A DNA stretch of 64,000 bases, taken from sequence record NZ_CP064874.1. One strand, written 5' to 3'. Shown here piece by piece: positions 4,686 to 63,478 of the stretch (the first letter of the stretch is position 1; the number at the start of each line of letters is the position of its first letter). Source of the DNA: a plasmid. The translations under genes and the position numbers were made by a program. The notes under the pieces are model-generated. The model searched no databases and had not been told where the DNA came from. It saw nothing but the letters and a program-made list of their open reading frames with translations.

Positions 4686-4966
4686 CGTGTCCTCGTGTTC
4701 AGGAGATCTGCGGTCAGTCGGGCGAAGCGTGTGTCGACGTCGCGCTGGTCGGGGAGATCGACGTCGGCCGCGATGGGTCGGGCGTCGTAGAAGTGGTGCC
4801 GGATGACGCGGCCCCGGTGGTCGACCAGGCCCTCACCCTCGCCCTCGATCGGCTCGAGCAGAGCGACGATGGTGACGGCGAGCTCGCGTGCTGTCGCGCG
4901 CTCCCGGATGAGGGCATGATCTCCGAGGCGCAGTGCCGGCCACGCAGTGAGCTCGGGGTCGGTCAT
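4682..4966 (-). CDS. hypothetical protein
   Basis: 94-aa ORF translationally coupled to neighbours (4-bp overlaps both sides). Confidence 0.45.
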   Translation of the reverse strand: MTDPELTAWPALRLGDHALIRERATARELAVTIVALLEPIEGEGEGLVDHRGRVIRHHFYDARPIAADVDLPDQRDVDTRFARLTADLLNTRTR

Positions 4967-5208
4967 GAGGGTGTTCCTTCCTTGCTTCTGGGGGAGGAGC
5001 GGCGTAGCCGCCGAGCGGATTTGGGGAGGGGTTCGTTGCGAGGCAGCTTCGCGAGGCGCCAGTCATCGCGGACGGCGATCGCGGCGGCGAAACAGGTCAT
5101 GAGCGTGGGGTGGTGGTGGTTGGCGCATCCGGCGCGGGTCTGACATCCGAGGTCGTAGCCCTCGGGGCTGCCGTGGATGATCTGTCGAGCGACCTCGTCG
5201 GAAAGCAT
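4963..5208 (-). CDS. small protein with HG-x3-GY-x2-GC-x4-GC-x-NH Cys/His motif (paralogue of 63227..63478)
   Basis: IHGSPEGYDLGCQTRAGCANHHHPTLMTC aligns with LHGTTAGYLAGCRSKGGCPNHGNRQLLTC of ORF 63227..63478. Confidence 0.5.
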   Translation of the reverse strand: MLSDEVARQIIHGSPEGYDLGCQTRAGCANHHHPTLMTCFAAAIAVRDDWRLAKLPRNEPLPKSARRLRRSSPRSKEGTPS

Positions 5209-5218
5209 GGCCTGGTCC

Positions 5219-5629
5219 TCAGTCGAAGCTGGCGTCGATCAGGAGGTCGAGCGCGTCGGCGAGCTCACGGAGCCTGTAGCTGCGTCGACCGGCGATGACG
5301 TGGCCGAACAGGTTGACGAAGTGCAGCTCGCGAGTGGTGGTGTCGGCGACGGCGACGGTATGGACGTCGTGAGCGTCGATGTACTGCCAGCTGATGATGT
5401 AGTTGCGGCCGGCGACGTGCGCTTGAGCCCAGCGGAAAAGCAGTGCACCGAGCGGACCATCTTCGGATGCGCGGGTCGAGTAGGGGTCGGCTGGCACGAT
5501 CGCGTCGACGGAATGGAAGCCGACAGAGGAGCGGGAGATCTCGTAGCTGTCCAGCGGGATGTCGAGGAAGAGATCGTTGTAACGGGTGCCGGTGTCATCG
5601 GTGATGACGATGTTGTTCAGAGTGCTCAT
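5219..5629 (-). CDS. hypothetical protein
   Basis: ORF 5219..5791 trimmed to internal Met MSTLNNIVITDD (start at 5629). Confidence 0.45.
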   Translation of the reverse strand: MSTLNNIVITDDTGTRYNDLFLDIPLDSYEISRSSVGFHSVDAIVPADPYSTRASEDGPLGALLFRWAQAHVAGRNYIISWQYIDAHDVHTVAVADTTTRELHFVNLFGHVIAGRRSYRLRELADALDLLIDASFD

Positions 5630-5655
5630 CGTTGTCAGTCCTCTCGGGTGGGGGG

Positions 5656-6378
5656 TCATGCGGCGCAGCTGGCGAGCTGCGCGCGGAGCGTGGAGTAGTC
5701 GGCCGGGTTGACCGTCAGCTGGTAGGCGGTGAGGACGTCGACGAAGCGCGCAGCGTAGGCGCATCCGTAGTCCGCGTTCGGGGGCATCCATTCGGAGGGG
5801 CCGCGATCGCTCTTCGACTGGTTGGTGCTGCCGTCCGTGGCCTGCAGATTGAGAGGATCGTTGGCGAAGCGCTCACGCTGGGCCTCGTCCCATTCGTCGG
5901 CGCCCTGACGCCACCCCCACGCGAGCGGCACGACATGGTCGATCTGCACGAGCTCACTCGTGCCCTGGCCGCGCTCGAAGGCGATCGTGAGCCCGGTGTA
6001 AGGGTCGTGAAGCGTTCCGGTGAGGACGACGCAGTCGTGTGTGCCGGGCTTGGTGGTGATGTTCTCGAGCGCGGCCGCGAGTGCGTCGTTGCGCTGGTCA
6101 CAGCCGTTGCGGTCGATGTCGGCCCAGCGTTGCCCGAACGCGTCACGGTCGTAGCTGTCCTGGTCGGCTGCATCGGCCACGACGAGCTGCTCGAGCTCAT
6201 CGAGGGCTGCGGCGGCGTCCGCGGAGATCTCTGCGGTAGGCACAGGCACAGGCGCGGGCGCGGTGTCGGTGAGGTCGCTGACGCCGGAGGGCTGGCTGGT
6301 GATCGCGATCGCGCCAGCGAGCAGGGCGACGACAACAGCGCCGGCGGCGGAGGCGAGGCGTGTGGTTCGGCGGTTCAT
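5656..6378 (-). CDS. secreted DUF1524 / HNH-like nuclease-domain protein
   Basis: ORF 5656..6864 trimmed to MNRRTTRLASAAGAVVVALLAGAIA (signal peptide) at 6378; C-terminal IDHVVPLAWGW ... GSTNQSKSDRGPSEW resembles GmrSD C-terminal/DUF1524 nuclease fold. Confidence 0.6.
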   Translation of the reverse strand: MNRRTTRLASAAGAVVVALLAGAIAITSQPSGVSDLTDTAPAPVPVPTAEISADAAAALDELEQLVVADAADQDSYDRDAFGQRWADIDRNGCDQRNDALAAALENITTKPGTHDCVVLTGTLHDPYTGLTIAFERGQGTSELVQIDHVVPLAWGWRQGADEWDEAQRERFANDPLNLQATDGSTNQSKSDRGPSEWMPPNADYGCAYAARFVDVLTAYQLTVNPADYSTLRAQLASCAA

Positions 6379-6389
6379 GAGTGGTCCGT

Positions 6390-6593: not shown

Positions 6594-6617
6594 GGGTTCC
6601 TCCGGGGTATTCGTCTA

Positions 6618-6651
6618 GGGGTATAGGTCGCAGTTCGGGGTGTTCGCGGAC
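6618..6651 (-). promoter_or_regulatory. motif-2 copy a: TGTCCGCGAAC-N16-TATACC (minus-strand reading), putative promoter
   Basis: plus strand GGGTATAGGTCGCAGTTCGGGGTGTTCGCGGACA; lies between terminator hairpin 6661-6690 and RBS of 6593 gene. Confidence 0.55.
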
Positions 6652-6660
6652 AGAGATTCT

Positions 6661-6690: not shown

Positions 6691-6697
6691 AGGGCTG

Positions 6698-7573: not shown

Positions 7574-7599
7574 GGTGTCCTCCCTCAGAGTGGACGAGT

Positions 7600-7647
7600 A
7601 GTGAATGTGACATTCACTAGTATGAGGCATTCGATATGCCCCGTCAA
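7600..7647 (-). promoter_or_regulatory. promoter/operator copy 1: TTGACG-N17-CATACT followed by 19-bp palindrome AGTGAATGT-S-ACATTCACT
   Basis: Operator at 7600-7618, about 27 bp upstream of ATG 7573; -10 at 7619-7624, -35 at 7642-7647 (minus-strand sense). Confidence 0.7.
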
Positions 7648-8985: not shown

Positions 8986-9034
8986 AGTGAATGTGACATT
9001 CACTGATGGTACGCGGGCGACGTACCCTCGTCAA
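8986..9034 (-). promoter_or_regulatory. promoter/operator copy 2: TTGACG-N17-TACCAT plus palindromic operator
   Basis: Operator 8986-9004 immediately upstream of RBS/ATG 8960; -10 9006-9011; -35 9029-9034. Confidence 0.7.
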
Positions 9035-10469: not shown

Positions 10470-10503
10470 GGGTATAGGCCGGGGTTGGGGGTGTTCGCGG
10501 ACA
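10470..10503 (-). promoter_or_regulatory. motif-2 copy b
   Basis: plus strand GGGTATAGGCCGGGGTTGGGGGTGTTCGCGGACA, preceded (in transcript sense) by hairpin 10510-10537. Confidence 0.55.
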
Positions 10504-10558
10504 GAAATCGGGGCCCCGCCGGTCGGCAGGGCCCCGATGAGGGCGGCATGGTCAAACG

Positions 10559-10962: not shown

Positions 10963-11318
10963 CATCGGGTGTCCTCGTCGGGGTCCACACGCTGGATCGC
11001 CTCGTGCAGGCGGGCCAGTCGGTCCTCTCGCACGATGATGACGAAGACCACCGCAATGCCGGCAAGAGGCAGGAGCACGATCGGGGCGGGGACCACGATC
11101 ACCACGCCGACAGCGAGCAGCACGATCGGCAGGATCACCCTCAGCGTTGCGCGGCGGTGCTGACCGAGCTCGTTCCTGATGCGATCCTTGATGACCCCGT
11201 CCTGCTGTGCGAAGGCGGTGGCCGGGTCCGAGGAACGCAACATGCTCCGGATTGCGCGAGTTGTCCACTCGCTCAGCGTGCGCTGATGCCGATCCCTACT
11301 ACTCTCACGCCCGGTCAT
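10962..11318 (-). CDS. membrane protein, hypothetical
   Basis: 118 aa with two long hydrophobic helices (ILPIVLLAVGVVIVVPAPIVLLPLAGIAVVFVII). Confidence 0.5.
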   Translation of the reverse strand: MTGRESSRDRHQRTLSEWTTRAIRSMLRSSDPATAFAQQDGVIKDRIRNELGQHRRATLRVILPIVLLAVGVVIVVPAPIVLLPLAGIAVVFVIIVREDRLARLHEAIQRVDPDEDTR

Positions 11319-11806
11319 CGCGTGTACTCGCTCGGGGACGGGATCGGCAGGTCAGGATCGCGGATCTCGTACTGCCGGTCCTCCACGTAGGCCGCGTACT
11401 CGTCTGCGAAGTCGTATGCCTCGGCCTCGCTGTGCCCTTCCTGGCGCGCATGATCGAACGCGCTCCGCCACGGCTGACCGGTCGAATCGAGCGGCGGGTA
11501 CAGGCGGTCGATCAGCACCTGATTCGCAGCGTCGTCGATCCTTCCGCGAGCCTCGGCGTCGGCGATCGCTCTCGCAGTCGCATGTGTGCCGTCTCGCAGC
11601 CGCGACAGATCACTCGAAGAGGGCACCACCCGCGCATAGGTGCAGTCGTCCCACCGGCAGTAGGTGGTCGTCTCCTCTGGCGTGAGCGGGCGGGGAGTGA
11701 CGCTCACCAGCGCGGCGCCGCGTCCGCACACGGGGCATCGTCGAGCCTCCGCGCTGCGGACACCAACGCCGCGGCGATGGGCTGTGTTGTTCCGGCGCTC
11801 GGTCAT
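11315..11806 (-). CDS. hypothetical zinc-ribbon protein
   Basis: CPVCG ... C..DDC motif; 4-bp overlaps with flanking genes. Confidence 0.5.
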   Translation of the reverse strand: MTERRNNTAHRRGVGVRSAEARRCPVCGRGAALVSVTPRPLTPEETTTYCRWDDCTYARVVPSSSDLSRLRDGTHATARAIADAEARGRIDDAANQVLIDRLYPPLDSTGQPWRSAFDHARQEGHSEAEAYDFADEYAAYVEDRQYEIRDPDLPIPSPSEYTR

Positions 11807-12392: not shown

Positions 12393-12445
12393 AGTGAATG
12401 TGACATTCACTGACTATACGCCTGCGAGTCTGGTAGGGGAACCCC
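12393..12445 (-). promoter_or_regulatory. promoter/operator copy 3: -10 TATAGT plus palindromic operator
   Basis: Operator 12393-12411 is 21 bp upstream of ATG 12371; -10 at 12413-12418. Confidence 0.65.
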
Positions 12446-12477: not shown

Positions 12478-12511
12478 GGGTATAGGCCGGTCTTGGCGCT
12501 GTTCGCGGACA
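12478..12511 (-). promoter_or_regulatory. motif-2 copy c (here upstream of operator copy 3)
   Basis: plus strand GGGTATAGGCCGGTCTTGGCGCTGTTCGCGGACA. Confidence 0.5.
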
Positions 12512-12535
12512 CCCGAGTTGCGAAGATCGGTGAGG

Positions 12536-12814: not shown

Positions 12815-14092
12815 TCAGGCGGAACGTGCGAGCTGCGCAGCGGAGGCGGTCGGCTGCAGCGCGAGGAGCCGCTGCGCCTTCGCTGCTTCGATCTCGCCCG
12901 GCAGCTCTCCCTTACGAGCGCCGGAGCGGCCGTAGAGAAGGACTTTCACGCCGGTCTTGGAGGCCTGCGCTCGGTCGGCGATCTCGAGGATGGTCATGCC
13001 GGAGGCCATCAGTTGTCGGACGTGCCGGCGAACGGGGTCAGCGGGCACGCGCGGGGCCTGCGGGGCGATGCCGGCTTCCCGCCGCCGGCGTCGCTCTTCG
13101 GTCAGCGATGCGTCGGCGCAGGAGATCTCGGCAGGGCATTGATCTCGGTCCTTGCAGCCGAGCTGGTAGCCGTAGGCGGTCCCGTGGTGTTCGGCCGGGA
13201 TGCTCTGTTCCTTCCGGTTTGCCATCCACTGCCGGTGATACTCGCGGCCCGCCTCGATGCACTCCGGTCGATCGCAGCCACGCGCCCGGCAGGCGTTGGT
13301 GCCGTGCGGCTGCAGCTGCCGCGGTCGGGAGACGCGAGGGGCCCGCGGGGTCTGCGGCCGCGGCATCCGCGGCCTGGCCGGCGGTGCCGGGCGATCATGC
13401 TTCGCGAGCTCGTCGACTGCTGCCTGATGCCTGGCGGTGGCGTCCTGCAGAGCACGCTCGATCACGCCGCCGACCGATAGGCCGCTTCCGGCGGCGATGG
13501 TGGCCGTCTTGAGCGTCTCGACCGCGGAACGCAGCTGGACGCGCAGATCCCGGTGGTCGCTGCGCCACTGTGCGAGCTCGTCGACGTGACGATCCAGCGC
13601 TGCTTCGTAGCCGTCGACCGTCTCCGCGAACGTGCTGGCACGCTCGACGGGGAGCGTCTCGGCCGCGAGGCGGGCCTTGTCGATCCACTGATAGCCAGGA
13701 TGCGTGCGCGTCCTCAGCAACGTCGGTCGCGGGGTCGCGATCCTCAGCGGCGCCGTCTTCGGCGGGCGGGCGGGCCGTGCTGTCGGTGTGCGCTTCGAGG
13801 CCTGCTTGGGTCGGCGGGGCTGCGTGGCTTCGGCCGCGGCCCGGCGCTCTTCTCGAGCGGCGATCTTGTCACGCTGCCGGGACTGGTCGCGTGCGGCTGC
13901 GTCGCGCTCGAGGATCTCCGCAAGGGGCGTGCCGGCGTCGATGAGCTTCGCGAAGGAGAAGTCGCCGGCATAGCGGGTGTGGATGGTGCGGCAGGGGATG
14001 AGCGCGGGGCACGCTGCAGTGCGGCATCCGCGGCGGTACCCGTCCGGGGTGCCGTGCGGGAAGCTGTCGTCGAGCAGGTCGAGGGTGGACAT
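12815..14092 (-). CDS. multi-motif protein: three copies of HGT-x2-GY-x2-GC-x5-C Cys/His motif plus C-terminal HTH
   Basis: ORF 12815..14293 trimmed to MSTLDLLDDSFPHGTPDGYRRGCRTAAC (start 14092); further copies HGTNACRARGCDRPEC and HGTAYGYQLGCKDRDQCPAE; C-terminal GMTILEIADRAQASKTGVKVLL HTH-like. Confidence 0.55.
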   Translation of the reverse strand: MSTLDLLDDSFPHGTPDGYRRGCRTAACPALIPCRTIHTRYAGDFSFAKLIDAGTPLAEILERDAAARDQSRQRDKIAAREERRAAAEATQPRRPKQASKRTPTARPARPPKTAPLRIATPRPTLLRTRTHPGYQWIDKARLAAETLPVERASTFAETVDGYEAALDRHVDELAQWRSDHRDLRVQLRSAVETLKTATIAAGSGLSVGGVIERALQDATARHQAAVDELAKHDRPAPPARPRMPRPQTPRAPRVSRPRQLQPHGTNACRARGCDRPECIEAGREYHRQWMANRKEQSIPAEHHGTAYGYQLGCKDRDQCPAEISCADASLTEERRRRREAGIAPQAPRVPADPVRRHVRQLMASGMTILEIADRAQASKTGVKVLLYGRSGARKGELPGEIEAAKAQRLLALQPTASAAQLARSA

Positions 14093-14103
14093 CACGTTCG
14101 GCC

Positions 14104-14565
14104 TCAGTAGCGCAGGAGCTTCGCGGTGACGAGCGACAACAGCGCCGCCCGTTGCGGAGAGTTGAGGCGGGAGAAGTGCGCGCCCAGGGTGTCCAGTGCT
14201 GCGGTGAACTCGGCAGGCAGCCCGTCGAGATCCCGCTTGACGCGCCGCTCGTTCGCGTCGCGCTGCGCCTCGGCCTGATCGGTCACACGCCACTCGTCGG
14301 TGGCCGCGCGGTCGGCATAGGCGCCCGTGATCCGTGGCGCATGCAGCCCGCGGGTGTAGAGCGAGTTCGGCTCGTCGATCGGGCGAGTGATCGTGATGAT
14401 CGCGCCGACCGGCGCCGACGTGTACGGCTTGTACGAGCCGAGCTCCTTGTCGGAGATCTCGCCGTCGACGAGCGTGCGGTACCAGTGCGCGAGCTTGCCA
14501 TTGCCCGCCTGCCTGCGCCCGACGTAGACGACATCCTCAGTGACGGTCTCTGCCGATTCGCTCAT
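14104..14565 (-). CDS. hypothetical protein
   Basis: ORF 14104..14580 trimmed to MSESAETV, RBS GAGGAG; operator copy 4 about 30 bp upstream. Confidence 0.5.
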   Translation of the reverse strand: MSESAETVTEDVVYVGRRQAGNGKLAHWYRTLVDGEISDKELGSYKPYTSAPVGAIITITRPIDEPNSLYTRGLHAPRITGAYADRAATDEWRVTDQAEAQRDANERRVKRDLDGLPAEFTAALDTLGAHFSRLNSPQRAALLSLVTAKLLRY

Positions 14566-14593: not shown

Positions 14594-14642
14594 AGTGAAT
14601 GTGACATTCACTGATACTAGAGAGGTTGCAGCGTTCTCGCAA
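14594..14642 (-). promoter_or_regulatory. promoter/operator copy 4: TTGCGA-N16-TAGTAT plus palindromic operator
   Basis: Operator 14594-14612; -10 14615-14620; -35 14637-14642. Confidence 0.7.
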
Positions 14643-16098: not shown

Positions 16099-16133
16099 TG
16101 GGTATAGGCCGCGGATCGTTCTCTTCGCGGACA
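16099..16133 (-). promoter_or_regulatory. motif-2 copy d
   Basis: plus strand GGGTATAGGCCGCGGATCGTTCTCTTCGCGGACA; hairpin 16147-16179 just upstream in transcript sense. Confidence 0.55.
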
Positions 16134-16342
16134 TGAAGGGGAAGGTGCGGGGGCGGCTATGTCACGGAGCCGCCCCCGCGGCGGCGACCTGGTTGGGAGG
16201 ACGGCGGTCGCCGTGAGGGACGGAGCGAAGAGCGCGGCGAGCGCTCGTCAGGCTGCGGTGTGGCGCCTGTCCCTGGGAGGGGAACGGCGTTGCGCGGTTC
16301 CCCTGGCTGTGGGTCTGTGGGGTCTCCCTCTACTCAGTTAGT

Positions 16343-16389
16343 AGTGAATGTGACATTCACAGAGTAGGGGGTTTCTGCGTGCGGGTCAA
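16343..16389 (-). promoter_or_regulatory. promoter/operator copy 5: TTGACC-N17-TACTCT plus operator; no ORF for about 190 nt downstream
   Basis: Operator 16343-16361 (18/19 match), -10 16361-16366, -35 16384-16389; transcript would run through a structured leader to hairpin 16147-16179. Confidence 0.6.
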
Positions 16390-18518: not shown

Positions 18519-19897
18519 TCGCTTCGTTGCGATGATCAGCTGTCGTTAGTTTAGGCGGCGGTGATCTCGGGGAGTATCACCGCCTCGTCGATGGTGGGGG
18601 TGGTCGCGGTGAGCTCGGTCATGGAGGCTTCGGAGAAGTAGCGGCGGTCGGCGGCTTCCCATTCGTCGTGTTGCTCGACGAGGACGGAGCCGGCCAGGCG
18701 GAGCAGGGCGGCGTTGTTCGGGAACACGCCAACGACGTCGGTGCGGCGCTTGATCTCCCGATTGAGGCGTTCCAGCGGGTTCGTGGACCAGATCTGTCGC
18801 CAATGCCGGGCGGGGAACGCTTTGAACGCGAGGATGTCGTCACGGGCGTCGGTGAGCATCACGGCGGTCTTGGGGTGGACGCGCTCGATCATGCGCACGA
18901 CTTCGTCGAACTGGGCATCGATGTGCTCGGCGTCGGGTTGGGCGAAGATCGTGCGGATCACGCTGGCGACCATCTCCTGCCGGCCCTTCGGGAGGGCGGT
19001 CAGGACGTTGCGCATGAAGTGGACGCGGCAGCGCTGCCAGGCGGCGCCCTGCAACACGGTCGCTGCGGCCTTCTTCAGTCCGGCGTGGGCGTCGGAGATC
19101 ACCAGCTTCACCCCGCCCAGACCTCGTGTCTTCAACGAGCGCAGGAACTGCTTCCAGAACTCCTCGGTCTCGCTGTCTCCGACATCGAAGCCCAGCACGA
19201 CCCGCCGCCCGTCAGCGGCGACGCCGATCGCGACGACGACCGCCTGGGACACGACACGGTGGTCGATGCGGACCTTGCAGTAGGTCGCGTCGAGGAACAC
19301 GTAGGGGTAGGCGATGTCAGACAGCGAGCGGTCGCGGAACGATGCGACCTCGGCGTCGAGCCCTTGGCAGATGCGGGACACCTCGGACTTCGAGATGCCA
19401 GTGTCAGCGCCGAGCGCTTTGACGAGGTCATCGACCTTCCGGGTTGAGACGCCGTGGAGGTAGGCCTCCATCACGACCGCGAACAAGGCTTGGTCGACCC
19501 GGCGGCGCCGCTCCAGCAGCGACGGGAAGAACGACCCCTGCCGCAACTTCGGGATCCGCAACTCCAGATCCCCAGCCGTGGTCGACAGCACCCGCGGCCG
19601 GGAACCGTTGCGGGTAGTCGTGCGCTCGCTCGTGCGCTCGTAGGGGGCGGCGCCGATGAATGCGGCTGTCTCCGCGTCGATCAGCTCCTGGTAGAGCCGC
19701 TCGGTCGCGGCTCGGATGCGGTCGGTGGTGCCGGTGAGCTTCAGTTCCCCGAGCAGCTCGAGGAGGGCAGACTGGTCAAGAGCCATCGTGCGGTGTCGTC
19801 TTTCTGTGTGAGTTCTTGGTCGTTCTCACTGACCATCGCACGATGGCTCACCCCGTCGCGGTCACGACGCCGCGGGCCCGAAAGACCACCACCCCGC
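18519..19897 (-). mobile_element. IS256-family insertion sequence
   Basis: Transposase ORF 18551..19786 (411 aa, classic IS256 Tnp); imperfect terminal IRs GTGGTGGTCTTTCG at both ends. Confidence 0.8.
18551..19786 (-). CDS. IS256 family transposase
   Basis: Full-length match to IS256 transposase architecture (MALDQSALLELL ... DATYCKVR ... WQRCRVHFMRN). Confidence 0.9.
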   Translation of the reverse strand: MALDQSALLELLGELKLTGTTDRIRAATERLYQELIDAETAAFIGAAPYERTSERTTTRNGSRPRVLSTTAGDLELRIPKLRQGSFFPSLLERRRRVDQALFAVVMEAYLHGVSTRKVDDLVKALGADTGISKSEVSRICQGLDAEVASFRDRSLSDIAYPYVFLDATYCKVRIDHRVVSQAVVVAIGVAADGRRVVLGFDVGDSETEEFWKQFLRSLKTRGLGGVKLVISDAHAGLKKAAATVLQGAAWQRCRVHFMRNVLTALPKGRQEMVASVIRTIFAQPDAEHIDAQFDEVVRMIERVHPKTAVMLTDARDDILAFKAFPARHWRQIWSTNPLERLNREIKRRTDVVGVFPNNAALLRLAGSVLVEQHDEWEAADRRYFSEASMTELTATTPTIDEAVILPEITAA

Positions 19898-19983: not shown

Positions 19984-21495
19984 TGTGCGTCAGGATGGGG
20001 TGAGACACCAGCACTGCTGACCTTCGCACTGCACGGGGCGAGAACGGACCAATACTGAGATGACGATGACGGTTGCTGACGTCGGCACCGATGATGGGGC
20101 TATGGCTCCTCGTGCTGACCGGCCCAAGAGGCGGACGTTCACCGCCGAGTTCAAAGCGGCGATCCTGGCCGAGTACGACGCCGCGGACCGCTCTGGGCGT
20201 GGGGAGATCCTGCGCCGGGAGGGCCTGTACACCTCCCACATCATCGAGTGGCGCAAGGCCGCGGCCGCCGGCTCGCTGTCCGGGCTGGGCAGCAAGCCGC
20301 GGGACCGGCGCGAGCGGGAGCTGCAGGCGCTACGGGCCCGGGCGGAGAAGGCCGAGGCCGAGCTGGCCAAGACCAGGGCGGCGCTGGACCTGATGGGAAA
20401 AGCACACGCGCTCTTGGAGACGCTCTCCGAGAGCGCGGACAAGCCGCCGCGGTCGCCGCGGTGATCAACCCGGCCGTCGACGGGCTGGCCGAGCACGTCG
20501 GCACCGCGGCTGCGTGCGCGCTGCTGGGTCGCTCCCGCGCCAGTCACTACCGGGCCAAGAACCCGCCACCGCCACGTCCACGGACACCGCGGCCGGCACC
20601 GGCGAACAAGCTGTCCGCCGCCGAGCGGGCCCACGTGCTGGCCGTGTTGACCAGCCAGCGGTTCGCGGACAAGTCGGTCGCCCAGGTCTGGGCCACGCTG
20701 CTGGACGAGGGCACCTACCTGTGCTCGATGTCCACGATGCACCGGATCCTGCGCGAGCACGACATGGCCGGGGAACGGCGCCGGCAGGCGAGCCACCCGC
20801 CCCGGACCCGGCCCGAGCTCGTCGCGACGGCGCCGGGGCAGGTGTGGAGTTGGGACATCACAAAGCTCAAGGGGCCGGAGCGGGGCGTGTACTACGACCT
20901 GTACGTCGTGCTCGACATCTTCTCCAGGTTCGTCGTGGGCTGGACCATCGCGGCCCGCGAGGACGCCGAGATCGCCAAGAACCTGCTCGAGCACGCCATG
21001 GGCATCCATGGCGTGCCGGAGGCGATCCACGCCGACCGCGGGACCTCGATGACCTCCAAACCGGTCGCTCAGCTGCTCGTCGACCTCGGGGTGGCCAGGT
21101 CGCACTCCCGCCCGCACGTGTCGAACGACAACCCTTACAGCGAGGCGGCGTTCAAGACGCTGAAGTACGCCCCGGTCTTCCCCGAGCGCTTCGGGTCCCT
21201 GGCCGACGCCGGCGCGTTCGCCGAGCAGTTCTTCGCCTACTACAACCACGAGCACCGCCACTGCGGGATCGGGCTGCACACCCCCGCCAGCGTCCACTTC
21301 GGCACCGCCGGGCAGGTCCGCGCCCAGCGCCAGGCCACCCTGGACGCGGCCTACGCCGCCCGTCCCGAGCGCTTCGGCCACCGCCGACCCCAGGCGCCCA
21401 AGCTGCCCGAGGCCGCCTGGATCAACCAGCCCTCACAGGAGGCCCTCATACAGACCGCCTGACGGAATCTGTCTCACCCGCCTTGACACTTTCCG
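19984..21495 (+). mobile_element. IS3-family insertion sequence, copy 1 (identical to copy at 56320-57831)
   Basis: IRs TGTGCGTCAGGATGGGGTGAGACA / TGTCTCACCCGCCTTGACACTTTCC; orfA/orfB with frameshift window near 20455. Confidence 0.85.
20060..21462 (+). CDS. IS3 family transposase OrfAB (OrfA 20060-20464 HTH; OrfB frame 20248-21462 DDE integrase; programmed -1 frameshift)
   Basis: OrfA leucine-zipper/HTH; OrfB WSWDITKL ... DDE motifs (HADRGTSM ... NPYSEAAFKTLK). Confidence 0.85.
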
Positions 21496-26785: not shown

Positions 26786-29700
26786 TCATAGGCCGCGTGC
26801 TGGCCCGTCATGTCGCGGGTCGTTGCGCCGCGGGTCGCGTTCGGTCGGCTCGCGGAGTTGCCGTTCGCGTTCGGCGAGTGCTTGCTGCCTTGCTTCGTGC
26901 TCGGCGCGGGTGGTTTCGATCCGTGCGGCGGCGTCGCGGATCGGTAGCGCGCGGAGGTAGTCGGCCTCGGCTCGGAGCGCGGTGGCTTGCTGGTGCGCCT
27001 GTCCTGCTTGCTGTGCTGGGTTCGGCAGTCGCATCCCGACCCGGTGGCGCATCACCGCCTGCGGCCCGTACTCGCTGACCAGCAACGCCCGGCGTTCCTG
27101 CTCGTGCCGCTGCCGCAACTCGTCACGGTCGGCTCGCGCGGCCTCGACGTGCTGGGCGGCGTCGATCACGCGGGGATCGGCCTCGGCGCGACGCTCGGCC
27201 TGTCGTGCCGCCCACTCGGGCAGGGTGTCGGTGGTGCGGGGTGGTTCGCCCCATGTTTCGCGCACCCGTGCCCGAACCGTCCGGGTGTGCTCGCTCGTCT
27301 GGCGGTGCTCCGCGCGGGCCTTGCGCCTGCCGAGCCTGCCGACGGTGGCGAGTCGGCTGCTTGCGGCGGCCTCGCGCTCGACAGCATCGAGATAGGTGGT
27401 GCCGTCTGCCTCGGCCTGCACCGTCAACGGTTCCGCGATTTCGGCACGGATGCGCGCCGCCTCGTCCTCGGCGTGGCGGAGCACGTCGGCGTGCTCGTCG
27501 TCCTCGGTCTTGTGTGTTGCGCGCTGGGCGTCGAACCTGGCAGCGGTCTGCTCCCAGCGTTCCGCCGCACGTTCGGCTCGTTCGGCTTCGGCGGTGAGGC
27601 GGGCGAGTTCTTCGGTGATGAGCTGCACGGGGCCATCGCTGACGAGGCCTTGCACGGCGTCGATGGCTTGGGCGGTGGCGTGGTCGAGGCCACGGTCTGC
27701 CGGGTCGCGTTCCATCGCCTCAACGAACCGCGCCCGCGCATCCGCCATATCAGCGGCGACGACGTGGAGTTGGTTCTGTTGGCGGCCTCTCGTCATGCCG
27801 ACGTAGACGCCTGCCGCGCTCGTCGCCTCCGACAAGGCCGTGTGGGAGGCATCGACGGTTGCGCCTTGGACGCCGTAGGCGGTCGCGGCATACGACAGGT
27901 GCGCCCACTCGCTCACGTACTCGGCGGGGAGGGCGACGGTGCGGCTGTGCTTGCCTCCGCCGCTGACTTCGCGGGCGTAGACGCTGCCCTCGTCGGTCAC
28001 ATGCTGCACGATCCATTGCTGCCGGTTTGCCACGCCGAGGTCGCTGCTGTTCTTCCGGGTCTGGATCAGGTCGCCAGCGCCGATGCTCAGCCCGTCGCTG
28101 CCGGTCGTCGTCATAGTGTCGTCGACCTCGCCGCGCTCGACCCGCCCGGCGCGGATGTGCTCGTTCAGCTCGGTGGCCTCGTCGTTGGTGGCGACGGTGA
28201 TCGCTTCGCCGTCGTGGGCGTGGGCGGTGATGTGCTCGCGGGCCGCTTCCTCGTCGGCATGCAAGGTCACGAGGCCCATCGTGGCGAGTCGGTCGAACAC
28301 GTCGCCGGGGTGCTCCCGGTCACGCATGACCAACGTCAACGCCGCATACTCGGCATCGGTGAACCTGTGGAGTTCGGTCATGTCGTAGGTACGGCCACGA
28401 ATCTGGGCGGCCATGTCGAGCACCCCGCCGCGCCCGACCGCCGGGAGCTGCGCCCGGTCGCCCACGAACGCGACCGACGCGCCTGCCTCGGCGGTGACGG
28501 TCAGCAGAGCGAGGGCGGTGTCCTGGTCGAGCATCCCCGCTTCGTCCACGATCACCCGCTCACCCCGCGACAGCACGGCGTCGTTTGGTGGGCCGGTGTA
28601 GATGTTCCCGGTTGCAGGGTCGGTGTCGCCGGGTGCGAGGCGTGTCCATACGCCGTCCTCGTTCCACCGCCACCCATGCGCATACACGAGCGCCGCGACG
28701 GAGGTTGCGGGCACGCCGAGTTCTTCGTGGGCGACCTGCGCCGCACGCAACGTCGGCGCAACCACCCGCGAGGATCGCCCGTGCTCGGCTGCAACCTCGA
28801 TGGCGACGCCGAGCATGGTGGTCTTGCCTGCGCCCGCCGCGCCCTCGACAATCACGAGCGGGTTGGTCGAGGCGACGGCAGCGGCGGCCACGGTCTGCCC
28901 GGTGTCGAGTCCGGCGGCTTGCGCAGCGTCGGTCACGTCGGGGTGCTTCGGCTCCCGTTCCGGCGTCGCGGCGGTGAGTTGGTCGCGGAGTGCGGTCTCG
29001 GCGGCGACGACGCCAAGGCTGGTGAGGTGGGCGACGTGCTCGGGTTGCACCATGCCCGGCGGCAGCACCGAGAAACAATCCGAGGCGGCGAGTCCGGTGG
29101 CGAGGTCGATGAACTCGCGCAACTCCGCCGGGGTCGCTTGCACGCCTGCCTCGGTGGTGATGCGGGTGACGTGCTCTCGCACGGTGTGCGGTGCCCAGGT
29201 CGATGCAGCCGCCGCGCAGCGATCCAGCGCACGACTGGCGACCTGTTGCACGCTGAGGTCATCCAGCGATGCCGGCGCAACGGTGTCGGGGTGCTGCAAG
29301 CTCTCGGGGTGGTAGCCGGCGTCTCGGAGTTCCTGCTGCCACCACTGCTCGTTCTTCAAGTCCGCCGGTTTCTTGCCGGGCCGCTGGAACGCCCACGCCG
29401 CGTCCTGCATCCGAGCGGTCAACACCGGGCCGGGCGTCTCGCCGGGATGCTTCGCTTGCCACTCGGCCTCCATGCGTTCCAGGTTGCGTCTGATCTGCGC
29501 CGACCGCTTCGACATGACGGCGTTGAACGGCTCCAACTCCACAACCTCACCGCTTACGGGGTCGAGGGTCAGGCCATGCTCGGAGAGCGTGGCGGCGAGC
29601 TGGGGGTGCGCGGCGATCACCGCCGTACCGAGAGCACGGATCGCGCCCTGCTGCTGGAACAACGCCGCCGTGGTCAGCGCCCGCCACTTCCCGCCCGCCC

Positions 29701-30241: not shown

Positions 30242-30251
30242 TCTGGCCTCC

Positions 30252-30271
30252 CTCACGAGTCGTCTCGTGAG
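30252..30271 (-). promoter_or_regulatory. hairpin CTCACGAG-TCGT-CTCGTGAG just upstream of the relaxase RBS; candidate oriT/nic-region or regulatory structure
   Basis: 8-bp perfect inverted repeat 11 bp from GTG start; MobF oriT sites typically lie upstream of the relaxase gene. Confidence 0.3.
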
Positions 30272-30468
30272 AGAGGTGCGCACTACGGCCCCGCCGTAAA
30301 ATACGTGCCTCACTGAGATAGGGGGCAGATGACTGATGGAGCCGAGCGTCAGCGCGAGAGCGTCGCACAGAGTGTCGCTGGCAAGAGTTGGCGTCACAAA
30401 GTTCGAGGGAACTTTCGGAGTTCGGTTCGATGAAGTGACTAGTCTTCTCGGCGAACTTCGTGACCTGA

Positions 30469-52791: not shown

Positions 52792-54251
52792 GGCTCTTCG
52801 GACATGCGGTGGGGGTGAGGCTCGCCGGGTGATGGTCGGCGGGTAGGGGTCGAGGTCCCCGAGGATCAGTAGCGCCAACTGCTGATCCATCACGAGGACC
52901 TCGACGTGCTTCACCCTACTTCGGGGTGCGCTGACGCGCGCTCTGCCGCTGATCCGTGTTACCGCTGCGATCTGCTGGTCGGTCTCGACGGCGTCCATGT
53001 CGAGCACGTTGACCGCCGCGACGGGCTGCTGATCGTCACCGTTTCGACACCGGCGGCGCCGACCGGGTGCCCGTTGTGCGGGGTCGTGGCGATCGGTCGA
53101 GGGCGCCGCCGTCGAGTGTTGCATGACGTGCCGGGCGTGACGCGGGTGCGGATCGTCTGGCGGCAACGGGTCTGGCGATGCGGCGACGTGGGCTGTGCCA
53201 AGAAGACGTTCGTGGAGCAGCTTCCCTCGCTGGTCGCTCGGCGCGGGTCGCTCACAAGGCGAGCCGTCGACTGGGCGATCGGGCAGCTGCGCCGCGAGCA
53301 CGCCACGATCGAAGGACTACGTCGTCAGCTCGGGACATCGTGGAAGACGGTGTGGCGGGCTGTTGAGCCTGAACTGGTGCGGTTGGCAGCCGACGAGTCC
53401 CGGTTCGAGAACGTGACCACGCTCGGCGTCGACGAGCACATCTGGCATCACGTCGACCACCGCAAGCGGGGCTCGAAGGAACTGACCGGCATGGTCGACC
53501 TCAGCCGCGACAGCACCGGGAAGACGCGGGCCAGGCTGCTCGACCTCGTGCCGGGCAGATCGGGGAAGGCATACGCGTCCTGGCTCAGCGAGCGGGGCGA
53601 AGCGTTCCGAAAGAACGTGAAGGTGGCGGCGCTGGACCCGTTCGCGGGCTACAAGACTGCGATCGATGACACGCTCGAAGACGCGGTCGCTGTGCTGGAC
53701 GCGTTCCATGTCGTCAAGCTCGGCACCGCCGCCGTCGACGAGGTCCGCCGCCGCGTCCAGCAAGACACCCTCGGGCATCGCGGTCGGAAGGGCGACCCGC
53801 TCTACGGGATTCAGACCATCCTCCGTGCCGGGGCCGAGAACCTCACCGACAAGCAGCGGATCCGGCTGACCGCGGCAATCGAGGCCGATCCTGCGCACGA
53901 CGAGGTGTTCGTCGCGTGGCAGTGCGCACAGCAGCTGCGCTCTGCCTACCACGCGAAGGACCTGACCGAGGGGCGGCGGATCGCCGAGAGGGTGGTCGAC
54001 ACGTTCCACACCTGCCCGATCCCCGAGATCGCCCGCCTCGGCCGCACCCTCCGCCGCTGGCGTTCAGCGTTCCTGGCGTACTTCACCACGAGCCGCGCGA
54101 ACAACGGCGGCACCGAGGCGATCAACGGGATCATCGAGCTCCACCGCCGCCTCGCCCGCGGCTATCGCAACCGCGAGAACTACCGCCTCCGCATGCTCCT
54201 CACCGCCGGCGGACTCACCCCATGACCCCCCCACCGGATGTCCGAAGAGCC
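52792..54251 (+). mobile_element. ISL3-family insertion sequence, copy 2
   Basis: Same terminal IRs as copy 1; transposase 52906..54225 about 90 percent identical to copy 1. Confidence 0.8.
52906..54225 (+). CDS. ISL3 family transposase
   Basis: 439 aa, collinear with 31779..33098. Confidence 0.85.
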   Translation: MLHPTSGCADARSAADPCYRCDLLVGLDGVHVEHVDRRDGLLIVTVSTPAAPTGCPLCGVVAIGRGRRRRVLHDVPGVTRVRIVWRQRVWRCGDVGCAKKTFVEQLPSLVARRGSLTRRAVDWAIGQLRREHATIEGLRRQLGTSWKTVWRAVEPELVRLAADESRFENVTTLGVDEHIWHHVDHRKRGSKELTGMVDLSRDSTGKTRARLLDLVPGRSGKAYASWLSERGEAFRKNVKVAALDPFAGYKTAIDDTLEDAVAVLDAFHVVKLGTAAVDEVRRRVQQDTLGHRGRKGDPLYGIQTILRAGAENLTDKQRIRLTAAIEADPAHDEVFVAWQCAQQLRSAYHAKDLTEGRRIAERVVDTFHTCPIPEIARLGRTLRRWRSAFLAYFTTSRANNGGTEAINGIIELHRRLARGYRNRENYRLRMLLTAGGLTP

Positions 54252-56319: not shown

Positions 56320-57831
56320 TGTGCGTCAGGATGGGGTGAGACACCAGCACTGCTGACCTTCGCACTGCACGGGGCGAGAACGGACCAATACTGAGATGAC
56401 GATGACGGTTGCTGACGTCGGCACCGATGATGGGGCTATGGCTCCTCGTGCTGACCGGCCCAAGAGGCGGACGTTCACCGCCGAGTTCAAAGCGGCGATC
56501 CTGGCCGAGTACGACGCCGCGGACCGCTCTGGGCGTGGGGAGATCCTGCGCCGGGAGGGCCTGTACACCTCCCACATCATCGAGTGGCGCAAGGCCGCGG
56601 CCGCCGGCTCGCTGTCCGGGCTGGGCAGCAAGCCGCGGGACCGGCGCGAGCGGGAGCTGCAGGCGCTACGGGCCCGGGCGGAGAAGGCCGAGGCCGAGCT
56701 GGCCAAGACCAGGGCGGCGCTGGACCTGATGGGAAAAGCACACGCGCTCTTGGAGACGCTCTCCGAGAGCGCGGACAAGCCGCCGCGGTCGCCGCGGTGA
56801 TCAACCCGGCCGTCGACGGGCTGGCCGAGCACGTCGGCACCGCGGCTGCGTGCGCGCTGCTGGGTCGCTCCCGCGCCAGTCACTACCGGGCCAAGAACCC
56901 GCCACCGCCACGTCCACGGACACCGCGGCCGGCACCGGCGAACAAGCTGTCCGCCGCCGAGCGGGCCCACGTGCTGGCCGTGTTGACCAGCCAGCGGTTC
57001 GCGGACAAGTCGGTCGCCCAGGTCTGGGCCACGCTGCTGGACGAGGGCACCTACCTGTGCTCGATGTCCACGATGCACCGGATCCTGCGCGAGCACGACA
57101 TGGCCGGGGAACGGCGCCGGCAGGCGAGCCACCCGCCCCGGACCCGGCCCGAGCTCGTCGCGACGGCGCCGGGGCAGGTGTGGAGTTGGGACATCACAAA
57201 GCTCAAGGGGCCGGAGCGGGGCGTGTACTACGACCTGTACGTCGTGCTCGACATCTTCTCCAGGTTCGTCGTGGGCTGGACCATCGCGGCCCGCGAGGAC
57301 GCCGAGATCGCCAAGAACCTGCTCGAGCACGCCATGGGCATCCATGGCGTGCCGGAGGCGATCCACGCCGACCGCGGGACCTCGATGACCTCCAAACCGG
57401 TCGCTCAGCTGCTCGTCGACCTCGGGGTGGCCAGGTCGCACTCCCGCCCGCACGTGTCGAACGACAACCCTTACAGCGAGGCGGCGTTCAAGACGCTGAA
57501 GTACGCCCCGGTCTTCCCCGAGCGCTTCGGGTCCCTGGCCGACGCCGGCGCGTTCGCCGAGCAGTTCTTCGCCTACTACAACCACGAGCACCGCCACTGC
57601 GGGATCGGGCTGCACACCCCCGCCAGCGTCCACTTCGGCACCGCCGGGCAGGTCCGCGCCCAGCGCCAGGCCACCCTGGACGCGGCCTACGCCGCCCGTC
57701 CCGAGCGCTTCGGCCACCGCCGACCCCAGGCGCCCAAGCTGCCCGAGGCCGCCTGGATCAACCAGCCCTCACAGGAGGCCCTCATACAGACCGCCTGACG
57801 GAATCTGTCTCACCCGCCTTGACACTTTCCG
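56320..57831 (+). mobile_element. IS3-family insertion sequence, copy 2 (identical to copy 1)
   Basis: Identical OrfA/OrfB translations and ends to 19984-21495. Confidence 0.85.
56396..57798 (+). CDS. IS3 family transposase OrfAB (frameshifted)
   Basis: Identical to 20060..21462. Confidence 0.85.
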
Positions 57832-60474: not shown

Positions 60475-60479
60475 CGCGG

Positions 60480-61538: not shown

Positions 61539-62190
61539 CGGCCGGCACCACCGCGTCGACGCCCGCAAGAGCGAGCAGATCAGCCGCGAGCGCGGCACCC
61601 GAGGGGTACTTGTTGGGCTTGGCCAGCGGCTCCAGATACTCGGTCAGGCGGGCGGGGGAGAGCAGCTTTCCCGCGTCCGCGGCGTCGGCGAGCGCATCGG
61701 CGACGAGGGAGCGGTCGACCCACTGCTCGATCAGGTCGGCGATCGTGCGCTCGACGCTCATGGTCGGCATCCCGTCGACGGAGACCACCTCGGTGGGCGC
61801 GAGCTCGCGGGTGCGGAGCCGCACCCCGTCCAGGCGGGTACCGCGGCGGGTGGGAACGACGAACTCGAGTGGCCCGGGGAACCAGTCGCCGATGCCATGC
61901 AGCTGCGCGGCCGTCTGGCCTGCGGCGACGACGGGCGGGACGCCGGTGTCTGTGCGGGGACGGTCGGCGCCGCCGAGGGCGAGCCAGGTCGCGAGGATCG
62001 CCTCCTGCTCGTGCTCTGGCGCGCCGGCGAGGCGGTAGACGCCGCGCGCGACGCGGATGAGCGCGCCGCTGTTGGCGAGGCGCGTCAGGGTCGGGCGCGC
62101 CACGCCAGCCTCGAGCGCCTGGGCGGTGGTCACCAGGCCCCAACGCTGTGACGCGAGCTCGCCCAGACGAGCGAAAGTTGATCCTGCCAT
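61531..62190 (-). CDS. AbiEi-family antitoxin/transcriptional regulator
   Basis: ORF 61531..62265 trimmed to MAGSTFARLGELAS; N-terminal wHTH LVTTAQALEAGVARPTLTRLANSGALIRVARGVYRL typical of AbiEi. Confidence 0.6.
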   Translation of the reverse strand: MAGSTFARLGELASQRWGLVTTAQALEAGVARPTLTRLANSGALIRVARGVYRLAGAPEHEQEAILATWLALGGADRPRTDTGVPPVVAAGQTAAQLHGIGDWFPGPLEFVVPTRRGTRLDGVRLRTRELAPTEVVSVDGMPTMSVERTIADLIEQWVDRSLVADALADAADAGKLLSPARLTEYLEPLAKPNKYPSGAALAADLLALAGVDAVVPADA

Positions 62191-62302
62191 GCGCACAGTG
62201 TAGCGAGAAACCGCAACAAACGTTGTAGCTCGTTCAGATTGTCGACTTCGAGCCTCTGGGGCCACCCCTTAGCAGTGAGGGGGTTCCAAACCCTCGGGAA
62301 CG

Positions 62303-62324
62303 GGTTATATTCGGGAATATAACC
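62303..62324. promoter_or_regulatory. perfect palindrome GGTTATATTC-GG-GAATATAACC between the abiE operon and the 62343 operon; candidate operator
   Basis: AT-rich 22-bp inverted repeat in a GC-rich genome, 19 bp upstream of ATG 62343. Confidence 0.45.
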
Positions 62325-62342
62325 ATCTGTGAGGAGGAGAAG

Positions 62343-63227
62343 ATGCGGACCCACACCTGCCCGCCGGACCACAAGCACGGGCTGACCTCCACCTGCTACG
62401 TCGTCCACCTCTGCGGGTGCCGCGCCTGCATGGACGGCAACGCGCGCCGCCGCCGCGACCGCTACCGTCTCCTGGCCTACGGGCGATACCAGGACGCGCA
62501 CCAACCCATCGAGCCGATCCGGCAGCACCTGCAGGCACTGGTCGACACCGGGATGATCCCCGAACGGATCGCCATCAGCGCCGGCGTCGGCGGCGCCACG
62601 GTCCGTCGCCTGCTCAACAGCGAGACGGCACGGTTCGTCACCGGCGCCACCGCCCGCAAACTCCTCGCAGTCACCCCCGACAGCAGCACTCTCGCCGCGC
62701 AGGGCCGAGTCAACGGCCGCGGCACCCGCCGGCGCCTCCAGGCTCTGGCCGCGATCGGATGGAACCACCACGAGATCGCACGCCGACTCGGCTACCCGCG
62801 CTGGAAGGTCAACAAGGCACTCGAAGGCGCCTACGTGGACATCCGTGTCCACGACGACATCGCCGCGCTCTACGACGAGCTCTGGGACCAGCAGCCCCCC
62901 ACCCACACCCGAGCGCAGCGGGTCGGCCGCTCCTACGCACTCACGGTCGCACGCCGGCACGGCTGGCTGCCGCCGCTGGCCTGGGACGACATCGACACCG
63001 ACCCGGCACCGCCCACAGCCGGGCAGGAACCCCTGCTCGACGAGATCGCGATCGAGCTCGCTCTCGCCGGCCAGAACGTCCGCCTCACCCGAGACGAGCG
63101 CCTCGAAGCCACCCGACGCGGGACCGAACGCGGACTCAGCCTCACCCAGCTCAGCGACCTGCTCGGCGTCGACGTCCGCACCATCGACCGCGACCGTGAC
63201 GACCTCGGACTCCGGCAGGCCGCCTGA
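62343..63227 (+). CDS. putative DNA-binding protein: N-terminal Cys/His motif (HKHGLTSTCYVVHLCGCRAC) plus three HTH-like repeats
   Basis: RBS GAGGAGGAG; HTH-like blocks RIAISAGVGGATVRRLL, HHEIARRLGYPRWKVNKAL, LSLTQLSDLLGVDVRTIDR. Confidence 0.5.
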   Translation: MRTHTCPPDHKHGLTSTCYVVHLCGCRACMDGNARRRRDRYRLLAYGRYQDAHQPIEPIRQHLQALVDTGMIPERIAISAGVGGATVRRLLNSETARFVTGATARKLLAVTPDSSTLAAQGRVNGRGTRRRLQALAAIGWNHHEIARRLGYPRWKVNKALEGAYVDIRVHDDIAALYDELWDQQPPTHTRAQRVGRSYALTVARRHGWLPPLAWDDIDTDPAPPTAGQEPLLDEIAIELALAGQNVRLTRDERLEATRRGTERGLSLTQLSDLLGVDVRTIDRDRDDLGLRQAA

Positions 63228-63478
63228 TGAGCAAGACGCTCGACATCCTCGAAGCCGCCCTGCACGGCACCACCGCCGGCTACCTGGCCGGATGCCGCAG
63301 CAAGGGAGGATGCCCGAACCACGGCAACCGCCAGCTGCTCACCTGCACCGAAGCGGCCCGCGCCCGCCGCCACTACTTCTCGCTCGCCTCGCTCGAGGAG
63401 ACCGAGCCGATCACCCGGCAGATGCTCCGCGACGCCAAGAACAGCCCCTTCGCACCGAAAGAAGCCGCAGATGTCTGA
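63227..63478 (+). CDS. small Cys/His-motif protein (paralogue of 4963..5208)
   Basis: LHGTTAGYLAGCRSKGGCPNHGNRQLLTC; ATGA coupling with the upstream gene. Confidence 0.5.
   Translation: MSKTLDILEAALHGTTAGYLAGCRSKGGCPNHGNRQLLTCTEAARARRHYFSLASLEETEPITRQMLRDAKNSPFAPKEAADV

Follow-up and report, generated by a model that had tools for sequence, protein, structure and literature searches.

A His-Cys3 module common to Microbacterium plasmid proteins and actinophage nucleases: a putative zinc-dependent, modular DNA-binding domain

The NUMODs found in homing endonucleases are helix-turn-helix (HTH)-like and metal-free. In homing-type His-Me nucleases, specificity is typically set by tandem modular DNA-binding domains, and such modules are shuffled between unrelated proteins (PMC5714182). 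Other described systems that bear comparison with the present one are the small zinc sites (zinc ribbons, treble clefs and knuckles), the small Cys-rich WhiB-like proteins, which are iron-sulfur transcription factors of Actinobacteria and actinophages, and PHROG 1590, a family labelled 'unknown function' whose members are called 'helix-turn-helix DNA binding protein' in GenBank phage records. Here, a 64,000-nucleotide (nt) stretch of the plasmid NZ_CP064874.1, with 66.7% G+C (the window), was analysed, in which four proteins carry a recurrent Cys/His motif. The motif marks a so far undescribed module of ~35-45 residues, which, judged from its sequence, is probably a zinc-dependent, modular DNA-binding domain.

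The four open reading frames (ORFs) lie at 4963-5208 (-) (81 amino acids (aa), W81), 12815-14092 (-) (425 aa, W425), 62343-63227 (+) (294 aa, W294) and 63227-63478 (+) (83 aa, W83); each has an ATG start and a TGA stop, with G+C at third codon positions of 0.77-0.89, a bias that true genes should show in DNA of this composition. A strict regular expression, HG-x3-4-GY-x2-GC-x3-6-C, searched in all six frames, matches exactly four times in the window, at 5125-5175 (-), 63263-63313 (+), 14009-14056 (-) and 13136-13186 (-), every time in the coding frame of a motif ORF. No strict match appeared in 200 dinucleotide-preserving shuffles, and the analytic expectation is ~1e-4. A looser pattern adds HGTNACRARGCDRPEC at 13259-13306 (-), and a divergent copy is found at the N-terminus of W294, giving four exact, one looser and one divergent copy. 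A preliminary description of this DNA had counted at least five copies in four proteins, three of them in 12815-14092 and one at the N-terminus of 62343-63227, and this count holds, with the first and third copies in W425 strict, the middle one looser and that in W294 divergent. The same description had taken W81 and W83 to be paralogs, and formal alignment bears this out (36% identity over 69 aa, E 8e-16).

The module opens with His-Gly-Thr and a short helix whose last residue is aromatic, and continues with Gly-Cys, a variable loop with two more Cys and an Arg-rich alpha-helix; in AlphaFold2 models, the Cys loop of each repeat lies between a short and a long helix. The consensus head reads H-G-[TS]-x2-G-[YFW]-x2-G-C (the core more loosely H-G-[TS]-x3-[YFW]-x2-G-C), and the loop with its two Cys is followed by a tail of x-[DE]-A-x3-Y-x-R-[DE]-[YW]-R-R-R-R. 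The 18 residues past the last Cys contain 26% Lys/Arg, in comparison to a background of 17%, and have a net charge of +2.1. A census of 441 repeats showed a His (rarely Cys), a Cys 10 residues on that is preceded by Gly, and two further Cys with variable spacing, most commonly +6/+16-17, +5/+11 or +2/+5, the loops between ligands being 1-5 and 2-11 residues long. Four ligands, His or Cys plus three Cys, are kept in 439 of the 441 repeats, only two being without the fourth. The predicted ligand set is His-Cys3, sometimes Cys4, and includes a third Cys that lies downstream of the motif as originally drawn. That motif had been described as ending in C-x-N-H. The terminal 'N-H' would instead be a subfamily feature whose His is not a ligand, as this His is replaced by Tyr in one small-protein homolog, 'NH' follows the middle Cys in just 40 of the 327 distinct repeats of the long form (280 of which have Pro directly after that Cys), and a further downstream Cys is conserved in its place. 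Among the nine members of the small-protein family, H13, G14, G18, G22, C23, G28, C29, N31, T39, C40, A43 and A46 are invariant.

Strong indirect evidence for a metal site is provided by the mutually exclusive placement of the putative fourth ligand. Among 145 repeats with C-x4-C spacing, drawn from 269 proteins, exactly one fourth-ligand position is used in 143, two are used in 2 and none lacks one altogether: 74 have only the Cys at position 6, 51 only the second Cys of 'CxC', and 18 only a downstream Cys. These counts are inflated by relatedness rather than phylogenetically independent: the 74 'position 6' cases include many close relatives, and distinct sequences number only 20 (position 6), 48 (CxC) and 16 (downstream). 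Despite this relatedness, three-ligand repeats are wholly absent, which favours a four-coordinate metal site. All three fourth-ligand states interchange at one repeat position in W425 orthologs, where the His is sometimes Cys as well. Across 40 W425 homologs, four states were seen at that position: HGTNAC.ARGC(D/R)RxEC, HGTNAS.ARGCRCxxC, the long-loop GCKTAEECPNFGTGEPTC, and CGTNAS.ARGCRCxxC.

The family extends far beyond the window. A profile of the window copies, searched against 1.84 billion representative proteins, matched 487 clusters at E<=1e-3, most of them in several stretches, and 186 at E<=1e-10, while a word-indexed homolog search returned only 5 (83-aa query) and 17 (motif alignment) close Microbacterium relatives. 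Repeats were counted with local HMMER in 169 proteins, comprising the best 150 matches, earlier homologs and the window proteins: 22 have one repeat, 45 two, 80 three, 15 four, 6 five and one seven. In a first Pfam census of 150 proteins (149 of the best matches and W425), HTH families make up the 25 most frequent of 52 co-occurring families, including HTH_23 (30), HTH_7 (28), HTH_38 (23) and HTH_3 (18), together with sigma-70 region 4 and others. In addition, a degenerate DNA pattern for the short 'GCRCxxC' form of the module, HGTxxGYxxGCRCxxC, matches at least 84 IMG/VR viral contigs. A second Pfam census, of 59 non-redundant ORFs with the strict short form from viral contigs, found HNH families in 12 (5+3+3+1), Endonuclease_7 in 2, zf-His_Me_endon in 1, WhiB in 2 and HTH_26 in 1, counts that may overlap between families. 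One protein (P0094) has seven tandem repeats followed by an HNH nuclease, and its repeat matches PHROGs annotated as HNH endonuclease, endonuclease VII, integrase and HTH DNA-binding protein. The module as seen here is distributed among actinobacterial hosts and their phages. The suggestion that it is confined to regulators of one element family does not survive these results, given the tandem arrays in hundreds of clusters and the short form in phage nucleases and WhiB fusions.

Several further observations concern the viral proteins. On IMG/VR contigs (L049 and L044/L045), one viral ORF with a C-terminal short-form module begins with the LAGLIDADG-like AWLAGLLEGEGAF, and several others have an N-terminal 'YxAWRxMxxRC...YGGRGIxVCxxW' region; both were recognised by eye, without Pfam confirmation, and may represent additional fusions to nucleases. 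The gene of a repeat protein directly abuts a DNA methyltransferase gene in three temperate phages of Microbacterium type (L015 8451-10591, L016 5497-7034 and L018 4974-6223), and one of these repeat proteins, vB_MoxS-R1 gp28, is annotated 'transcription factor'. This adjacency does not recur in a fourth phage (L021), and a functional tie of repeat-only phage proteins to DNA methyltransferases was dropped as a rule.

Comparison with described families supports the earlier statement that the motif cannot be assigned to any of them. No Pfam-A or NCBIfam model covers the motif in the four window proteins, nor does any Pfam model in the 150-protein set. PADLOC gave no match for W81, W83, W425 or their small neighbours, and only a marginal 14-bit match for W294. 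A phmmer search of the PDB returned nothing below E 0.2, PDB profile searches with the long and short forms (A1 and A5) returned no match at E<=10, and a fold search found no significant similarity to a solved zinc-finger fold. Thus, none of the searches of Pfam-A, NCBIfam, PADLOC and the PDB turned up a well-characterised domain. PHROGs hold the module inside several families without naming it, and no description was found in a literature search; the 'ShiLan' HNH paper concerns ordinary CxxC fingers. Megablast of both halves of the window against a phage collection gave no match. As novelty is judged here by comparison with Pfam, NCBIfam, PADLOC, the PDB and PHROGs, the module may have a named remote relative.

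As with the NUMODs and other modules of homing endonucleases, the module is short, occurs singly or in tandem on HNH/His-Me-finger nucleases and phage HTH units, and has been shuffled between unrelated proteins (PMC5714182). However, it is built around a predicted His-Cys3 site, it matches no zinc-finger Pfam model in sequence, and no match to the Pfam models NUMOD1, NUMOD3, NUMOD4 or AP2 was found among the four proteins of the window, in the 150-protein set or in the 59 viral ORFs. With zinc ribbons, treble clefs and knuckles, it has in common four Cys/His within ~30 residues, variable loops and a helix that follows directly on the last ligand, but it differs in its H...C...C...C order, its fixed HG(T/S)xxx(Y/F/W)xxGC head and the lack of a CxxC in the long form. 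The WhiB-like proteins are likewise small and Cys-rich, occur in the same hosts and phages, where their genes lie in the same early regions, and are at times joined to the module; unlike them, the module has His as its first ligand, variable spacing and tandem repetition.

The largest of the window proteins, W425, contains three modules. Its N-terminal module a is followed by a long helix, a disordered linker rich in Pro and Arg, a coiled-coil hairpin ~100 residues long, a second linker, modules b and c, and an HTH unit (AlphaFold2 pLDDT 89.5). The mechanical ORF at 12815-14293 (-) reaches back to a GTG at 14293 (492 aa), but all homologs begin MSTLDLL, so the start is placed at the ATG at 14092; the ORF upstream of it, with 158 aa here and 153 aa in the calls of public contigs, has its end at 14104. 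Module a, at 13970..14056 (-), reads H13-GTPDGYRRG-C23-RTAA-C28-PALIP-C34-RTIHTRY (regular expression; HMM 55.3 bits) and represents an N-terminal subtype with a conserved extension, RY.GD..F..(L/V)DAG. Module b, at 13226..13306 (-), reads H263-GTNA-C268-RARG-C273-DRPE-C278-IEAGREYHRQW (HMM 28.2 bits; short-form HMM 45.6 bits) and is a short form with a relocated fourth ligand, the Cys at position 6 replacing the second Cys of 'CRC'. The best conserved is module c, at 13109..13186 (-), which reads H303-GTAYGYQLG-C313-KDRDQ-C319-PAEIS-C325-ADA (regular expression; HMM 53.4 bits) and in 40 homologs keeps H, G, Y, G, Y, L, G, C, C and C invariant. The C-terminal HTH unit at 12860..13051 (-) bears the signature 'PVR.H(V/I)..L...GM....IA......(T/S)G(V/I)K.LLYGR...A.R(I/L)LAL', is homologous to W294 residues ~55-115 (E 4e-5) and shows weak matches to Xre-type HTH folds. 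The long antiparallel coiled coil is predicted at 13400..13699 (-) from AlphaFold2 secondary structure with pLDDT above 90, and some homologs have 1-5 tandem HTH_23 or sigma-70 region 4-like repeats in its place, as seen with Pfam and in alignments. W425 has 92 homolog clusters, almost only in Microbacterium; in a genome scan, the family was likewise all but limited to this genus, and three matches in assemblies labelled Proteobacteria, Burkholderiales and Ilumatobacteraceae are probably mis-binned. One further protein, P0255, in which the N-terminal half of a W425 homolog is fused to ArdC, looks like a deletion or an assembly chimera and was not used.

W294 (62343..63227 (+)) combines an N-terminal Cys/His module with three HTH-like units (HTH_23 29.9 bits, cut-off 24.6). 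It is a full-length member of PHROG 1590, with residues 11-291 aligned to profile positions 7-276 of 281 (E 4.1e-46), and its homologs include 332 phage records annotated 'HTH DNA binding protein'. W425, on the other hand, covers only profile positions 30-111 (E 4.7e-12), one common unit, and is not a full member; this first HTH unit of the family is also present in P0035, a 343-aa protein from a related element. PHROG 1590 is defined by its HTH region, and the Cys/His module is one of several alternative N-terminal heads. In W294, the N-terminus reads HKHGLTSTCYVVHLCGCRAC, and the divergent module at 62358..62444 (+) is C6-PPDH-K-H12-G-LTST-C18-YVVHL-C24-G-C26-RA-C29-MDGNA. Repeat HMMs built from the other copies, long or short form, do not detect it. 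However, its DHKHGLTSTCYVVHLCGCRAC aligns column for column with a clear copy in gp44 of Arthrobacter phage RootBeer, NHVHG-TSTAYVIDKCRCRAC, which scores 19.9 bits against the short-form HMM in a full-length W294 homolog (BLASTP E 1e-42). Given this clear copy at the aligned position, the W294 copy is accepted as a divergent member of the family, and a 38%-identical homolog keeps the same N-terminal pattern, CPPDHAHGRTFTCYNQHGCRCPDC. Two other PHROG 1590 homologs, SirDuracell gp92 and Ohgeesy gp64, have ordinary CxxC...CxxC/H modules at the same N-terminal position, which suggests that the module is functionally interchangeable with known zinc fingers.

The two small proteins each contain a single module. 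The W81 gene (4963..5208 (-)) belongs to a tightly packed operon of 136-aa, W81, 94-aa and 91-aa genes, in which its stop overlaps the start of the next ORF. Its module, at 5083..5175 (-), reads H12-G-S-PEG-Y-DL-G-C22-QTRAG-C28-ANHHHPTLMT-C39-FAA (regular expression; HMM 60.8 bits; invariant columns), with H12, C22, C28 and C39 as predicted ligands. The start of the W83 gene (63227..63478 (+)) overlaps the stop of the W294 gene, and there is an 8-nt overlap with the next ORF. The W83 module, at 63263..63355 (+), reads H13-G-T-TAG-Y-LA-G-C23-RSKGG-C29-PNHGNRQLLT-C40-TEA (regular expression; HMM 63.5 bits; family columns), the predicted ligands being H13, C23, C29 and C40; the AlphaFold2 model of this protein has a pLDDT of 86.3 and a pTM of 0.75. 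A protein identical to W81 is annotated 'hypothetical protein [Microbacterium]' on 382 contigs. The exact W81 and W83 proteins are indexed in 852 and 2285 blocks, respectively, of a public collection, in records that include Tara Oceans marine and soil metagenomes, where near-identical contigs span 57-64 kb. This points either to an extremely widespread element or to Microbacterium DNA as a recurrent contaminant of sequencing projects.

As a whole, the window is mosaic Microbacterium plasmid or integrative-element DNA containing two backbones. Backbone 1, from position 1 to ~16.4 kb with genes on the minus strand, begins with MmeI, the 91-aa, 94-aa, W81 and 136-aa genes, and continues with a GmrSD_C-like HNH nuclease, ArdC, Mom and DUF3846, the 153-aa and W425 genes lying further on. 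It is 87% identical to part of plasmid NZ_CP060403.1, and longer contigs have a DUF3560 gene, an FtsK/SpoIIIE gene (TraB-like translocase) and ParB just past the window start. Backbone 2, from ~60.5 kb to the window end, comprises AbiEii/AbiEi followed by W294 and W83 and, past the window end, genes for proteins of 100 aa and 158 aa and for a GmrSD_C-like nuclease; part of plasmid NZ_CP038257.1 of M. sediminis is identical to this backbone. The GmrSD_C-like genes of the two backbones are 41% identical. Judged by this divergence and their own, W81 and W83 are on two diverged versions of a related backbone. Of the two origins previously proposed for the pair, the one that invoked two related elements is retained in this form, and recent duplication of a regulatory module is not. 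Genes for GmrSD_C (DUF1524) HNH nucleases occur at ~5656-6380 (-) in the window, at 11020-11772 in element L005 and at 976-2289 in element L023; these homologs, 41-46% identical, each have a motif protein no more than three genes away, a neighbourhood conserved across three diverged elements.

Gene fusion and synteny both support a functional link of the small single-module proteins with the larger HTH ones. One related element of metagenomic origin, L019, has the gene order DUF3846, Mom, ArdC, 140 aa, 151 aa, P0035 and 84 aa, where the 140-, 151- and 84-aa proteins are 52%, 27% and 34% identical to the 136-, 153- and 94-aa proteins of the window. In P0035, an N-terminal module like that of W81 (47% identity, E 6e-23) is joined to two further repeats and to the HTH unit seen at the W425 C-terminus. 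L023, moreover, groups a homolog of W294 (38% identity) with a GmrSD_C-like nuclease and a four-repeat protein. W425, with three modules, a coiled coil and one HTH, and W294, with one divergent module and three HTH units, are probably multivalent, oligomeric DNA-binding regulators, and probably serve the two related plasmid backbones as such. W81 and W83 would be free-standing versions of the N-terminal module, co-transcribed with backbone genes, that probably act with, or modulate, W425 and W294 on DNA. This partnership of small and large proteins is predicted from the split and fused forms of the gene (W81 and P0035).

Taken together, these features suggest how the module may work. One His and three Cys (or four Cys) would hold a single structural metal ion, most likely zinc, which would fix the Cys loop and present the basic helix. 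The module would then be a portable DNA-binding unit, single or in tandem, adding affinity or specificity to its fusion partner: HTH regulators of Microbacterium plasmids, integrative elements and prophages on the one side, and HNH/endonuclease VII His-Me-finger nucleases and WhiB-type factors of actinobacterial phages on the other. The preliminary description had pictured a compact zinc-binding, DNA-binding knuckle. The four-ligand pattern (439 of 441 repeats, with an exclusive fourth ligand) and the partner domains, nearly all of them DNA-binding or DNA-cutting in both Pfam censuses, agree with it, and its ligand set is corrected to His-Cys3. A more specific proposal, that each unit reads a few base pairs (bp) through its Arg/aromatic-rich helix and that arrays of 2-7 units give long composite target sites, is rather improbable as it stands.

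Some findings weigh against a DNA-binding module. About 70% of the 59 viral short-form ORFs have no recognised partner domain, W81 and W83 are without an HTH and could act via protein contacts, and no cognate DNA site was found for the module. One candidate was a 19-bp palindrome, AGTGAATGTGACATTCACT, of which five intergenic copies (0 expected by chance) occur in the window, in backbone 1 only, at 7600-7618, 8986-9004, 12393-12411, 14594-14612 and 16343-16361, one of them just upstream of the 153-aa/425-aa operon. This palindrome is present in four closely related loci (L025-L027 and L032), but element 2 does not have it, nor do 12 of the 16 loci with W425 homologs, where no replacement palindrome was found; hence it does not track the family. 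Binding of the motif proteins to this palindrome, as a possible operator, is left unsupported, though not disproved, by its absence from element 2 and the diverged W425-bearing elements.

The best-surviving alternative is that the module is a structural zinc knot for protein contacts, such as oligomerisation or the recruitment of RNA polymerase or a partner regulator, that makes no DNA contact, with W81 and W83 as adaptors or anti-regulators. This is unlikely, but it accommodates several of the observations: repeat-only proteins as well as the small proteins are without an HTH, the N-terminal subtype has a conserved surface, RY.GD..F...DAG, that extends beyond the metal site, and the fusion of a small protein to HTH proteins elsewhere would fit a subunit interface equally well. 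However, arrays of up to seven modules on HNH/endonuclease VII nucleases, together with the Arg-rich helix, are typical of DNA-binding modules, and repeat-only proteins would have nothing else to act with. A role in DNA binding is accordingly the preferred reading of the two.

Less probable again is a reading in which the His-Cys3/Cys4 site carries an iron-sulfur cluster and serves as a redox or nitric oxide (NO) sensor, much as the WhiB-like proteins do. Four conserved Cys/His ligands in mobile-element regulators of actinobacteria, the module's place beside a WhiB domain in 2 of the 59 viral ORFs and weak PHROG similarity to WhiB-annotated families would all be in keeping with this. Yet the four window proteins have no match to Pfam Whib (PF02467; four Cys and a G[VI]WGG turn) at E<=1, and in the viral ORFs Whib is present only as a separate fused domain. 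Widely variable ligand spacing, ligands that migrate, and up to seven tandem copies per protein also fit small structural zinc sites better than cluster sites. Finally, that the motif recurs as a compositional or chance product of the translation of DNA rich in G+C, with its many Gly, Cys, Arg and His codons, is hardly conceivable and is refuted by the shuffles and the profile search, for although loose versions of the pattern also match non-coding frames of the window, every copy lies in the coding frame of a conserved gene, profile matches reach E 8e-41 in the 1.84-billion-protein library, and the short form was also recovered in viral contigs with a strict degenerate DNA pattern.

Other features of the window concern the two backbones and the DNA between them. 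A second intergenic motif, GGGTATAGGCCG..(N)..TTCGCGGACA, occurs in four copies at 6619-6657, 10470-10508, 12478-12516 and 16100-16138, that at 12.4 kb being ~85 nt from a copy of the 19-bp palindrome; on the minus strand, it looks like a common promoter of the backbone operons. Directly upstream of the W294 ribosome-binding site, in the divergent region common with abiEi, is a 22-bp AT-rich perfect palindrome, GGTTATATTC-GG-GAATATAACC (62305-62326), a candidate operator for AbiEi or W294. Between the backbones are a TrwC relaxase, accessory metabolic genes and duplicated insertion sequences (IS). The relaxase, at 26786-30586 (-), is a 1266-aa TrwC-type protein with an AAA_30 helicase domain; with this gene in the window and FtsK/SpoIIIE just outside, both kinds of conjugative DNA-transfer genes are associated with this DNA. 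A 404-aa rve-family IS transposase ORF is present in two equal-length copies (20248-21462 and 56584-57798) and a 439-aa ISL3 transposase ORF in two copies (31779-33098 and 52906-54225), in addition to a Mutator-family transposase at 18551-19786; one ORF per IS pair was scanned against Pfam, and pairing is by family and length. These IS copies bracket the accessory region between the backbones, which suggests IS-mediated mosaic assembly.

Few genomes have been sequenced as heavily, or annotated as sparsely, as those of actinophages. If the module is what it is proposed to be, hundreds of proteins now called 'hypothetical' in the plasmids, integrative elements and phages of actinobacteria would gain a domain annotation and a testable function, and the DNA-targeting part of many actinophage HNH and endonuclease VII nucleases would be explained. 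It would also represent a small metal-binding fold without a solved relative and, should each unit indeed read its own few bp, a new DNA-reading scaffold beside the C2H2 zinc fingers and the NUMODs, with a fold absent from the PDB. The use of three alternative positions for the predicted fourth ligand in orthologous repeats would show how metal sites can be rebuilt in evolution. For the Microbacterium plasmids themselves, probable regulators can now be named for the backbone genes, including ArdC, Mom, DUF3846 and the GmrSD-like nuclease.

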